DNA from: Elusimicrobiales bacterium
GTDB taxonomy: Bacteria > Elusimicrobiota > Elusimicrobia > Elusimicrobiales > UBA9959
Reading direction: 5' to 3'
Length of the DNA: 45,935 nt
NCBI GenBank assembly: GCA_049972095.1
Contig: JBMFKQ010000010.1
Coordinates: 1-45,935, forward strand
Below the pieces are notes generated by a model. That model was not told where the DNA came from. It was given only the letters and a program-made list of their open reading frames with translations, and did not search any database. The translations under genes were made by a program, and so were the position numbers. Shown here piece by piece: positions 26,446 through 30,661 of the stretch; position 1 is the stretch's first letter, and each line of letters opens with the position of its first letter.

Positions 26446-28473
26446 TCAGTAGTCTCTTTCTTCATAAAATCTTCTCCAGGGTCTAAATTCTTTGTCTATC
26501 TCATTATCTATAACATCTTTTCTATATGGGTCATTCATCTTCATTGTTATATAAAAGAAAAACTCAGTGCTATTCTTTCTTGTCCTCAAAGCAAATTTTG
26601 TATTGAAGTCATGGAACTCCTTATTAATAGCAAAGCTCTTCTCATAAAATTTGAATGCCATATCCTTTGAAAAATCAACATAATACCTAAAACCAAACTC
26701 ACCATACCAGCCTTTTTGAGGCAGTGGATTGTAGCCAAAAATAGCAGATATAAGAAATCTACTTTTATTTGTATCATAGTTTGCAAAGCCAACAGTTAGA
26801 TAGTTTTTCTCCAGGTTTGTCATCATATTTGTGATGAATGCCTTATGCCCTTCGTTTATGCTATAAATCTCTTTAAAATAAAGCTCATAGTTATAATATG
26901 ATGTATAACATTCAAAGGAAAAGGGATTGAGTCTTTGTAAAAAACTTCTTCGAACATTGTAGTGTTTGAGATCATAATCAGTTTTTATATTTACATACTG
27001 ATGTATATCCTTTATCCAAAAAACATCTAAACCAATTGCGTTTTCTTCACTTCCTCTATCCATTGAGTTTTTATCAAGAGAAAATCTATTTATACTGCTT
27101 CTGAATCTTGCGCTGTATCCGGTATTTATAGTTACACCTCTATATGAATAACGCAGTGATGTTGTAAGTGAATATCTTGCAATATTTATATTTGATGTAT
27201 GCGATGAGGTTGAGTAGTCTGTGATATAGTTTAGCATGGCTGAGGTGTATGATGAAAAATTCTTTGAAATCTTAAATGAGTTGTAAAGCGAGTAGTTCAA
27301 AGTTGAATGTCGTTGAAAATATGTCCTATCAATTCTTCTGTTCTGTGCAGATATGTAGATGCTATGAGAAAAAGGAAGGAAAGAAATCTTTCTTGTTAGC
27401 ATTTGATATTCAAGCATTGGTAAGACCTCATTATACTTAAAAAATGAAGATGAGCTTGAATAATATATAACATAAGAGCCAGCCCGCATATAATAGAGAG
27501 GAGTTCTGTAAGTTAAAGCCAGATCCCACTGCCTTGTGTTTGATACAACAAAAGGGTTTGATCTAAAATATCTGTTATTAAACTCAGGATCTGATGGGAG
27601 CCTTAAAAAACTCTGTATATAGAGGTTTGACAGGTTAGATGAATATATATTCTTCCATCCACCCCCATTCATACCCCAGTATATTGGTGATCTTCCATAT
27701 TCATCTATTCGGTAATATGATATATTAAACTTAAAATCATCAGGTTTATAGCCAAAAAACTCTCCACCACTACCAAAACCCTTTTTAGAATAGTAATCAA
27801 GATATCCTCTTATTTTAAGGTATCTTGATAATCTATATGTATAGTTTGATTTTATGTAAAGACCATTTCTATCATCATAACCCGGATAAAACTGGCTTAT
27901 AAGAGGAGTTCCTTCACCAAGCGGTTTATATAGAAATGGAATATAAAAAACAGGAAAACTTCCTATAAAAAGTATATTATTGTATGAGAGAAAGTATCTT
28001 TTAGGGGAAAGGATAATCTTTGATGATGAGATTCTATAGTGTGGAGGCTGCATATTACAGGTTGTTAGATAACTGTGGTTATAGACAAACTTATCCTTTG
28101 AAATATAGGCTTTTTTCCCCTTTATTATAAACCTGTCATACATTGAATAGGTGTTGTCAAGAATACCGCTGGCAGTATCAAGATTATAACTGCCATGTGA
28201 ACCTGATATATATGCAGAGGATGTTTCAATTGTAAAAGATGAGAATGTTATATCAGAGGATGAGAGATTCATAAAAGCATGCTCTGTTTTTATTTTTACA
28301 ACAACATTATCAGATTTATCAAGAATATTTATAATAGCATTTGTTGATATCTCAACACTTGACTCACAAGCTCTGTAGACAGCATGATCTGAGACAAACT
28401 CTGCTTTTTCAATTTCATAGTTATGTTTTTCATAAGAAAGCAAAGACAAAGAAAAAAAAAGAAAAAAACTCAT
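26446..28473 (-). CDS. lptD: LptD-like LPS-assembly outer-membrane protein
   Basis: TTC...PHY.I, PVFYIPF, PGY....G motifs of LptD/OstA, followed by a long aromatic-rich beta-barrel-like region. Confidence 0.7.
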   Translation of the reverse strand: MSFFLFFSLSLLSYEKHNYEIEKAEFVSDHAVYRACESSVEISTNAIINILDKSDNVVVKIKTEHAFMNLSSSDITFSSFTIETSSAYISGSHGSYNLDTASGILDNTYSMYDRFIIKGKKAYISKDKFVYNHSYLTTCNMQPPHYRISSSKIILSPKRYFLSYNNILFIGSFPVFYIPFLYKPLGEGTPLISQFYPGYDDRNGLYIKSNYTYRLSRYLKIRGYLDYYSKKGFGSGGEFFGYKPDDFKFNISYYRIDEYGRSPIYWGMNGGGWKNIYSSNLSNLYIQSFLRLPSDPEFNNRYFRSNPFVVSNTRQWDLALTYRTPLYYMRAGSYVIYYSSSSSFFKYNEVLPMLEYQMLTRKISFLPFSHSIYISAQNRRIDRTYFQRHSTLNYSLYNSFKISKNFSSYTSAMLNYITDYSTSSHTSNINIARYSLTTSLRYSYRGVTINTGYSARFRSSINRFSLDKNSMDRGSEENAIGLDVFWIKDIHQYVNIKTDYDLKHYNVRRSFLQRLNPFSFECYTSYYNYELYFKEIYSINEGHKAFITNMMTNLEKNYLTVGFANYDTNKSRFLISAIFGYNPLPQKGWYGEFGFRYYVDFSKDMAFKFYEKSFAINKEFHDFNTKFALRTRKNSTEFFFYITMKMNDPYRKDVIDNEIDKEFRPWRRFYEERDY

Positions 28474-29373
28474 AACTCTTGCATAGCAAAATCAGCGCAA
28501 CCAAGAACACCAACAGCTTTTGTTGATGTTATATGAATCTTGATGGATTCAATAGGCTTTCTCATCTTATAAGCTTTAAGGGTTTTCATAATACCATCCT
28601 TAAAAAACTCATAAGCTCTTGAAAGCCCTCCTGTAATAACAACAACCTCAGGATTAAAACTAACAGCAACATTACCTATACCATAACCAAGATGTCTTCC
28701 ATATTCAAACCATATCTTCTTTGCTATGCTATCTCCATTTTTTGCAAGCATATAAACTGCCCGTGGAGTTATCTTCTGTCTATCTATTCCTTTTATCCTT
28801 AAAGCCATATCGCAAACCCTTCTGGCTGAGCAGTACGCTTCAAAGACACCCCCTGTTTCCACAAGCACACCTAAGCCCTCCATATTTTATAACAATATGT
28901 CCAAACTCCCCTGCTGTTGTTGTTGAACCCTTGTAAAGCTTGCCATCAATTATAACACCGCCACCAACACCAGTGCCAAGAGTAAAACCTACAACATTTC
29001 TATATCTTTTACCAAGCTCAAAAACATAAGCACCCCAAATAGCCATATTTGCATCATTTTCAACCCTGACCTCAATACCACATCTCTTCTCTATATCAGA
29101 CTTTATGTTTTTGTCTTTCCATCCACAAAGGTTTGGTGCAAATCTAAGCACTCCTTTATCAGAATCAATATCACCGGCAACTGCAAAGGATACTTTTGAA
29201 GCCCTGTAGTTTTTAATGAGCTTTAAAAGAATCTTGCTTATTTTGAAAATAAAACCTTCATATCCATTTGAAAGAGGAGTTAGTATACTTTGGGAATAGA
29301 GAATTTTTCTATCTCTATCAACAACAGCAATCTTTGTCTTTGTCCCACCCACATCAACCCCTATTCCTCTCAT
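28470..29373 (-). CDS. ROK-family sugar kinase (glucokinase-like), split by a +1 frameshift at 28840-28845; about 300 aa if joined
   Basis: ORF1 has GVDVGGTK, ENDAN, TLGTGVGGG, GEFGH...CACGNRGCL*. The +1 frame continues EAYCS...NPEVVVITGGLS...GVLG. The joined sequence restores the canonical CxCGxxGCLE motif. Confidence 0.92.
28839..28854 (-). promoter_or_regulatory. Candidate RF2-type +1 ribosomal frameshift cassette (AGGGGG-TGT-CTT-TGA-A)
   Basis: Internal SD-like AGGGGG, 3-nt spacer, then CTT TGA, exactly at the point where the ROK reading frame shifts +1. Confidence 0.5.
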
Positions 29374-30661
29374 AAAAATCCTCCATTCTTTTTGTCATAA
29401 GCTCTATTATTTCAGAAACAAGGTAAAACGAGCCTGTAACACAAACATTATCAGATACTCTTAGTGCAAACTCAAAAGCAGCCTTTGAGCTATCAACAAC
29501 GCTTACATCCACATCCTTTTTATACTCCATATACATATTAGCTATCAAATAAGGGGAAAGCTTTTTTGGATTGTCAACCATCGTTATAATAACCCTGTCA
29601 AAAAATGATGTATCTGCAATATTCTTTATTACTGTTTTGTAGTCCTTATTTGAAAAAATAGAGAAAACAAGAGTCCATCTCTTTTCATCAAAACCAAAAA
29701 AACGCATATTCTCAATCAAAACCCTAATTGCACCGGGATTATGTGCTCCATCAAGCACAACAATTTTATCAGCCTCATCGCTTATTCTTACAATCTGAAA
29801 CCTTCCTTCTATATCTGTGTTTTCAATCATCCTATAAAATTTCTCTAACTCAATATTTAGCCCTATCATCTCAAGTCCCCTAATAACCATACTCAGGTTT
29901 ATTGGCTGTTTAACACCCACAGGAATCATCTTAAATCTTTTCAAATTTCTTTTGTCCTCTAAAACCATTCTGTAATCCTCATCAAGACCTTTTATATCAA
30001 AAAAATTTTCAACCTTAAAAATCATCCCACCACGCTGTGATGCCACTTTCTTTACAACCTCAAGCTGTTCCTCCATCATCTCACCCACAACACAGATAGA
30101 ATCTTTTTTTATTATACCAGCCTTCTGAAAGGCTATATCATTTAAGGTTGGTCCAAGCATATTCATATGATCATAATCAATCGATGTTATAAAACACAGC
30201 TCTGCGTCAACAACATTCGTTGTGTCATAAAGCCCACCAATCCCAACCTCAATAACGCTGAAATCAACATTCTGCTCTTCAAAATACTTAAGCATAATAA
30301 GTGTCACTATCTCAAAAAAACTCAGATGCTCATCAAAAGATGTAACATAATCATAAAGCCTTACAAAGTCCTGCTCTGATATGTTCTTGCCGTTTATCTT
30401 TATCCTTTCAGTAAGACCTCTTATATGGGGGGATGTATAAAGCCCAACCTTTTTATTCAAAGACATAAGCGCGATAGAGCAAAGATATGCAACAGAGCCT
30501 TTCCCATTTGTCCCTGTTATATGAATAACCCTTCCTATTCTTTTGTGAGGATTTCCAATCCTTTCAAGTATCTTGAATATATGTTGAAGGCCATTTTTCT
30601 TAACAAGTGAATGTTTGGTGTATAAAATCTGCTCAATCTCTTTAAACCTTCCATCGTGCAT
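29354..30661 (-). CDS. folC: Folylpolyglutamate synthase/dihydrofolate synthase
   Basis: HITGTNGKGS, YTSPH...ERI, EVGIGG.YDTTN, DH...LG, KAGIIK, DGAHN, TGSFYLV. Confidence 0.95.
   Translation of the reverse strand: MHDGRFKEIEQILYTKHSLVKKNGLQHIFKILERIGNPHKRIGRVIHITGTNGKGSVAYLCSIALMSLNKKVGLYTSPHIRGLTERIKINGKNISEQDFVRLYDYVTSFDEHLSFFEIVTLIMLKYFEEQNVDFSVIEVGIGGLYDTTNVVDAELCFITSIDYDHMNMLGPTLNDIAFQKAGIIKKDSICVVGEMMEEQLEVVKKVASQRGGMIFKVENFFDIKGLDEDYRMVLEDKRNLKRFKMIPVGVKQPINLSMVIRGLEMIGLNIELEKFYRMIENTDIEGRFQIVRISDEADKIVVLDGAHNPGAIRVLIENMRFFGFDEKRWTLVFSIFSNKDYKTVIKNIADTSFFDRVIITMVDNPKKLSPYLIANMYMEYKKDVDVSVVDSSKAAFEFALRVSDNVCVTGSFYLVSEIIELMTKRMEDFYERNRG

Follow-up and report, generated by a model that had tools for sequence, protein, structure and literature searches.

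The closest described counterpart of the site reported here is the +1 frameshift signal of prfB, the gene for release factor RF2. In a survey that covered over 12,000 genomes, the passages on this motif give a consensus of AGGGGG with CTTT 3 nt downstream and TGA as the stop in 98.6% of motifs, and describe the C after the stop as highly conserved (PMC12421855). In E. coli K-12 prfB (b2891), fetched for comparison, the signal reads AGG GGG TAT CTT TGA C. A GeneTack survey of 1106 genomes, in its passages on the CTT_TGA_C motif, names it for prfB only (PMC3711429). A second kind of precedent is "corrective" frameshifting, under which, in the sections of the source concerned, indels are kept in small genomes when they are partly compensated, with mitochondria and insect endosymbionts as examples (PMC5009743).

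The window analysed here is a stretch of 45,935 nt (contig JBMFKQ010000010.1) from an Elusimicrobiales genome of 1.44 Mb, assembled in 58 contigs and 96.5% complete. Within it, a gene of the ROK sugar kinase family is interrupted on the minus strand by a premature TGA whose surroundings closely resemble the prfB signal.

Structure of the interrupted ROK kinase gene

At the break the minus strand reads GGA AAC AGG GGG TGT CTT TGA AGC GTA CTG C, with AGG at 28854-28852, GGG at 28851-28849, TGT at 28848-28846, CTT at 28845-28843 and TGA at 28842-28840. The features of the locus are as follows.

28840..29373, minus strand: ORF1, 177 codons, the N-terminal ROK part with the premature TGA, ending EFGHIVIKYGGLRCACGNRGCL and then stop
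29379..29384, minus strand: ribosome-binding site GGAGGA, read from the sequence, 5 nt before the ATG at 29373-29371
28849..28854, minus strand: internal Shine-Dalgarno (SD)-like AGGGGG, which encodes Arg-Gly in the zinc motif and lies 3 nt upstream of CTT; the same in E. coli prfB
28846..28848, minus strand: spacer and E-site codon TGT (Cys), which is TAT in E. coli prfB and TGC in metagenome run X2
28842..28845, minus strand: slippery CTT_T, made up of the Leu codon CTT (28845-28843) and the extra T (28842)
28840..28842, minus strand: premature in-frame TGA, from the T inserted before the Glu codon GAA; the next base is A
28470..28841, minus strand: +1-frame remainder, EAYCSARRVC…FAMQEL, 123 codons and stop
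28470..28473, minus strand: ATGA overlap, in which the stop of the +1-frame remainder meets the start of the gene downstream (26446..28473, 675 aa)

ORF1 includes the ATP-binding N-domain together with the zinc ligands (His/Cys), and its C-terminal end reads CACGNRGCL before the stop, while the +1-frame remainder is open as far as its own stop at 28470-28472, with no further stop or frame break on the way. A +1 step at the break joins the two through GCLEAYC and restores a ROK kinase of 300 aa. The halves match complementary ranges of the Pfam ROK profile (PF00480), positions 2-175 of 294 for ORF1 (E 1.2e-45) and 191-293 for the second half, or 175-293 when the longer ORF is used for the latter. 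Membership in the ROK family is thus given by a full-length profile match, including the GH…CxCGxxGCxE zinc motif, that is summed over both halves. In the alignment, the His and all three Cys fall in near-invariant columns, as does the E-A-Y of the +1 frame. The locus should be annotated as one frameshifted ROK kinase and not as two genes. Two other in-frame CTTT words are present in the gene. The TGA at 28840 may also lower translation of the next gene (26446..28473) through loss of coupling at the ATGA overlap.

Compared with the E. coli prfB signal, the ROK site (AGG GGG TGT CTT TGA A) is identical at 14 of 16 bases. An in-frame TGA, a CTT_T directly before it and AGGGGG 3 nt upstream of CTT are all found, whereas the base after the stop (28839) is A and not C, and the break with its signal is not conserved among orthologues. 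The exact string AGGGGGNNNCTTTGA was found once in the 1.44 Mb genome, at the ROK site, and among the 36 CTT-TGA ends of frames of at least 100 codons in this genome, AGGGGG stands at the correct spacing in none but ROK. Several of the CTT-TGA ends that lead into long +1 frames carry an ATG at or beside the stop and seem to be ordinary gene junctions. The initial annotation, made from the letters of the window, had described a ROK kinase split into two otherwise intact ORFs, a protein of about 300 aa with GNRGCL-EAYC restored by a +1 shift, a 14/16 match to prfB with the SD at the exact spacing, an A in place of C after UGA, and an unshifted product that keeps the His/Cys zinc ligands and stops just before the conserved Glu; the fetched prfB sequence, the profile ranges and the alignment bear it out in all of this anatomy.

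A split gene of this kind might in principle encode a two-piece enzyme, with a C-terminal part made by internal initiation that joins the 177-aa fragment. A start for such a part would be provided by the in-frame ATG at 28808-28806, which has AGAAGGG 8 nt upstream. The fragment begun at 28808, however, would be missing EAYCSARRVCD and with it the conserved Glu-Ala-Tyr; no SD precedes the other in-frame ATG (28883), and no relative is split. We know of no example of a split ROK kinase, and this explanation is hardly credible.

Reality and age of the extra T

The extra T is real DNA and not an assembly slip of one record alone. The stretch is present in two runs labelled hot springs metagenome (X1 and X2, from studies dated 2017 and 2024), so that the extra base suspected at 28840-28845 is present, at contig level, in two studies. 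In X2, which comes from a separate study, a contig of 418 bases spans 28531-28948 with 0 gaps and one substitution, and it carries the extra T. The substitution, 28846 A>G on the plus strand, changes TGT to TGC in the spacer codon and is synonymous. Two other runs, X3 and X4, gave no contig over the stretch. As the X2 contig has both the extra T and a distinguishing substitution, the insertion is shared by a second strain that differs slightly from the first, and the two T-bearing strains differ at 1 position in about 1070 covered bases (~0.1%).

A sequencing or assembly error, or a minority allele in a population in which most cells have an intact CTTGAA, would gain some room from the nature of these records: X1 and X2 are contigs (word depths of 8.8 and 4.9), in which minority alleles are invisible and rare variants are dropped; the X1 contig is identical to the window and may be its own source; and the exact 177-aa product, which is on record in NCBI, Logan and ENA (3 contigs), possibly derives from one data set throughout. 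Against this stand the X2 contig of an independent study, which has the same T with 0 gaps and a substitution 4 nt away, the shortness of the three-T run, which is not an error-prone homopolymer, and the small number of frame breaks genome-wide. We consider an artefact or minority allele very improbable.

The ROK gene is present in 40 of the 41 genomes of the order (the window's own genome, G000, being counted), including genomes of 1.2-1.7 Mb, and the relatives' open frames are 313-754 aa long. A frame break at GC[LM]E was sought in the loci of 27 relatives and none was found; the DNA is continuous, with CTT, CTG, CTC, TTG or ATG followed directly by GAA or GAG. At locus L021 the motif pattern was unmatched, yet it lies within an open frame of 358 aa. 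In the genome of the same genus (67% identity), the site reads AGA GGG AGT TTA GAA and the frame is continuous, running to the contig end. The synonymous codons of the SD vary, with AGA GGG in the same genus and TAC GGA, AAA GGC and others elsewhere. In a collection of 5.8 billion proteins, the nearest sequences have 77% and 70% identity and are both full-length at 300 aa, and the search found no sequence between 100% and 77% identity. A scan of metagenome contigs for diverged strains bearing the break gave 9 loci at 34-52% identity, none of them close. A pattern scan with one genome per species, a collection that may leave out the window's own genome, gave 23 loci. Thirteen of them are ROK genes with an in-frame, intact AGG GGG TGY CTT GAR GCN TA, and none of these 13, which have the pre-cassette codons, contains the T insertion; the 6 loci with an extra base include no ROK gene. 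Judged by these comparisons, the insertion is young and lineage-specific, and we hold with considerable confidence that the mutation is both real and young and does not represent an evolved, conserved signal.

The initial annotation had further proposed that kinase synthesis may be gated by the efficiency of UGA termination. As an evolved programmed +1 frameshift, the cassette would be kept by selection, and kinase synthesis would follow the activity of RF2 or the efficiency with which UGA terminates. The RF2 signal is indeed present in all its core elements and at exact spacing, and the allele occurs in the two studies (2017, 2024), where a synonymous change within the cassette has not disrupted it; the strains are nevertheless only ~0.1% apart, too close for persistence to show selection. 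The proposal is opposed by the absence of the break from relatives and from the 13 pre-cassette ROK genes, by SD codons that are not conserved at synonymous positions, and by a lineage whose prfB lacks the prototype signal throughout the order. A stop in mid-gene (codon 177 of 300) would also turn the non-shift product into a wasteful large fragment, 41% of long ORFs end in TGA, and a second core gene, aspartate-semialdehyde-dehydrogenase-like (asd-like), is broken at a site with no signal. The GeneTack survey likewise, as far as its passages on CTT_TGA_C extend over the 1106 genomes, names prfB alone (PMC3711429). The orthologue alignment that had been put forward as a check for a conserved break and AGGGGG gave continuous relatives with varying SD codons, in line with the annotation's own caveat that one T inserted into conserved R-G-C-L-E codons could produce the site. 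An evolved signal is accordingly given very little weight here.

Origin of the resemblance

The relatives point to an ancestral ...R-G-C-L-E... with CTT GAA. Since one T before GAA gives rise to the TGA as well as to the slippery CTTT, AGGGGG alone pre-existed, as the Arg-Gly codons of the CxCGxxGCLE zinc motif. The codon usage of this genome predicts AGG GGG TGY CTT for 2.7% of R-G-C-L motifs, and these codons stand intact in the 13 other ROK genes. These points favour the explanation that the locus is a plain young pseudogene, in which the kinase became dispensable or drift in a small population carried the mutation to high frequency, the likeness to prfB is a coincidence of motif codons and inserted T, and any slippage would be too infrequent to count. 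That the break is lineage-specific and non-recurrent, and that CTTT and TGA are direct by-products of a T before GAA, is what such a pseudogene would present.

A genome-wide count weighs on the other side. The 1.29 Mb of long ORFs hold 5268 in-frame CTT-GA/AA sites, and a strong SD hexamer lies 3 nt before CTT-GA/AA at only 6 other in-frame sites, with AGGGGG in none. With so few SD-spaced sites, a random one-base insertion would create a site of this type with a chance of ~4e-6, and the chance that one of ~3 random indels hits such a site is ~1e-5 per genome, which argues against mere coincidence.

Translation machinery of the host

A tRNA-Leu(GAG) is present in the genome. SD cores precede 37% of long ORFs, compared with 7% in a control window; the 16S gene is absent from the assembly, and the anti-SD is deduced from this enrichment before starts only. 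TGA is the stop of 456 of 1116 long ORFs (41%). Read-through or reassignment of UGA was rejected as an explanation, in view of this use of TGA as a stop, of a 0 frame that meets TAG 19 codons after the TGA, and of a search of the genome in which no UGA suppressor tRNA or tRNA-Sec was found. Transcriptional slippage at the ROK site was also rejected, because a run of three T would be too short.

RF2 is encoded by a single ORF of 376 aa with SPF and GGQ motifs and without an internal stop (G000:C20:28171-29223, L031), and prfB is free of an internal stop in every over-cut-off match of the order (40 of 41 genomes, G000-G040). The unbroken prfB across the order indicates a lineage without the prototype frameshift. 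The genome has 34% GC and yet 41% TGA stops, with the prfB motif absent; this combination fits the link between motif loss and high TGA use given in the cited part of the large prfB survey, and not the link with high GC published alongside (PMC12421855).

High TGA use and an unregulated prfB point to efficient termination, which would favour the pseudogene. In the experiments quoted from the same survey, however, motif-less M. smegmatis shifted 6.6% on the prfB motif, compared with 52.7% in B. subtilis (PMC12421855), so that the same cassette shifts measurably even in a poor shifter, a point that weighs against the pseudogene. The value for M. smegmatis argues at the same time for a low efficiency here, and the A after the stop argues the same way.

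Gene content, decay and other broken genes

The interrupted gene is the only ROK/glucokinase-family match of the genome, with a sugar specificity predicted by family only, and genes for both PGI and PFK are present. As the sole candidate hexokinase in a genome that retains PGI and PFK, and as a gene that 40 of the order's 41 genomes retain, those of 1.2-1.7 Mb included, it would not readily be taken for a dispensable gene. The only PGI-family match (G000:C26:7324-7932, L102) covers positions 99-309 of 486 of its profile within an open frame of 1049 aa, an indication that the phosphoglucose isomerase is fused or atypical.

The downstream half of the ROK gene keeps every near-invariant residue, and its C/N identity ratio over ten homologues is 0.79, compared with 0.82 +/- 0.09 in 45 intact pairs. 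No second lesion, neither stop nor indel, was found in the gene downstream of the break, which speaks against a pseudogene; with strains only ~0.1% apart, an intact downstream frame is nevertheless expected even in a dead gene, and this decay test has low power.

Other split genes were surveyed among same-strand neighbouring ORFs in different frames, of which 17 + 54 = 71 of 1018 pairs were selected by two criteria and scanned with Pfam; the sensitivity of the filter was 63% on simulated indels, and a first filter, which gave 268 pairs, mostly ATGA-type overlaps, was discarded. Two of the 71 pairs are split genes, namely ROK as the positive control and the asd-like gene, which corresponds to ~3 frame-split genes in the genome. 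The asd-like gene (G000:C13:36567-37575, L084) is thus a second frame-broken core gene. Its N-domain ORF ends ...PLVIPEINR and stop (AAT AGG TGA), and the +1 frame continues IGELITEKTKLIAGPNC. The gene is continuous in 13 relatives (342-415 aa), which read PEIN-G/A/S..., so that the break corresponds to one extra A, at AAT [A] GGT GAG. No SD or slippery codon was found at this break, and it follows that this assembly does contain uncompensated breaks of core genes. The frame would be regained here too by a +1 step at AGG-UGA, at the cost of one altered residue.

A carbamoyltransferase remnant of the aspartate/ornithine type is also present (G000:C37:2115-2501, L094), with the N-domain only (profile 37-148 of 148) and no C-domain recognised downstream. 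The genome, at 1.44 Mb, is small compared with the 1.6-3.5 Mb of its family, and a small genome with an asd-like break and such a remnant is a setting in which a ROK pseudogene would be at home. Elsewhere, a 411-aa ORF (G000:C42:7588-8823, L157) contains an RF-1 domain (ArfB/ICT1-like, profile 5-86 of 116) together with both FolD domains in one frame, and represents either a fusion of an unusual kind or a pair of genes that no stop separates.

At both the ROK gene (CTT TGA) and the asd-like gene (AGG TGA; L084 330-339), the 0 frame meets its TGA no more than one codon away from the insertion. In simulation this geometry arises with 14% of random indels, or ~2% for both genes, and with n=2 it may be chance. 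A lineage whose ribosomes often shift +1 at UGA would let core-gene insertions survive when a stop arises at the insertion; ROK would then be a newborn RF2-type signal outside prfB, with a glucokinase output dependent on RF2 in a lineage without prfB autoregulation. This broader idea appears improbable.

Corrective shifting as the preferred explanation

In our preferred explanation, which we put forward tentatively and with somewhat less than even confidence, low-level corrective +1 shifting takes place at the ROK site and some enzyme is made. A recent insertion of one T at the Leu-Glu junction, between CTT and GAA, split the only ROK gene, and its outcome, by accident, is a complete RF2-type +1 shift site. 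With the ribosome stalled at UGA, tRNA-Leu(GAG) sitting on CUU and the anti-SD bound to AGGGGG, a minority of ribosomes may slip from CUU to UUU and then read GAA GCG TAC. The shifted ribosomes would make the 300-aa kinase in its ancestral form, unaltered at every residue, and the majority would terminate and release the 177-aa fragment. This would amount to the correction of an indel, probably an inefficient one, rather than to a regulatory circuit shaped by evolution.

Corrective shifting is favoured by a complete, properly spaced cassette, by the presence in the host of tRNA-Leu(GAG), RF2 and SD-led initiation, by a core single-copy gene and by the very low probability of a neutral coincidence. 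It is disfavoured by the lack of conservation or recurrence, by an RF2 demand that is probably high, by the poorer stop context and by the uncompensated asd-like break. On this balance the ROK site seems mechanistically competent and low-level corrective shifting is plausible, and that shifting occurs at all, and would then supply enough enzyme to be of use, is our inference. A plain pseudogene comes close to it in likelihood and is to be taken as a serious alternative.

If the shift works, the locus would be a natural example of a complete RF2-type +1 signal born in one mutational step in an ordinary metabolic gene, and it would show how recoding sites are born and why some frameshift alleles of needed genes escape purifying selection. 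If it fails, the locus serves as a caution that conserved R-G-C-L-E codons and one inserted base can mimic a textbook recoding signal; given such mimicry, resemblance without conservation is no evidence of programmed frameshifting.

Comparison with known systems

The E. coli prfB signal and the ROK site have in common the AGGGGG SD, the 3-nt spacer, the CUU_U P-site codon and UGA, and at the ROK site, as in prfB, the functional protein is predicted to be encoded in the +1 frame. They differ in position, codon 177 of 300 at the ROK site and about codon 26 in prfB, and in the base after the stop, which is a conserved C in prfB and A in ROK. The ROK gene encodes a sugar kinase, so that, unlike in prfB, there is no autoregulatory loop. 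The site is found in no orthologue, and prfB itself is unbroken in the host and in its order.

Outside prfB, the E. coli genes yehP, nuoE, pepP and cheA, found with FSscan, show +1 shifting in reporters from local features of the SD and the E, P and A sites, and the CCC_TGA cases pheL, yjeF, ykgD and yrhB likewise gave measurable +1 shifting, in the parts of that study relevant here (PMC2790909). In those genes the normal product is that of the unshifted frame, whereas in the ROK gene a shift would be needed for the enzyme.

Ordinary young frameshift pseudogenes, with one-base indels in short runs, are like the ROK break in being lineage-specific, single events without conservation, and the asd-like gene is a second example from the same genome. 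The ROK break differs from them in coinciding with a full, spaced shift signal, as would ~4e-6 of random insertions.

Precedents for the proposed rescue are the "pseudo-pseudogenes" treated in the consulted sections of PMC5009743, in which single-base insertions in mitochondrial genes are read by +1 shifting, and genes of Buchnera and Blochmannia are rescued by poly(A) slippage. Those cases differ from the putative one at the ROK site in being long conserved or experimentally shown; the endosymbiont cases also act at the transcript level and at long A runs, in place of the RF2-type SD and stop of ROK (PMC5009743). The ROK site is nevertheless like the cases described there in combining a one-base insertion with an otherwise conserved and probably needed gene in a small genome, in having a non-shift product that would be useless, and in a putative rescue that would serve no evolved regulatory purpose (PMC5009743).
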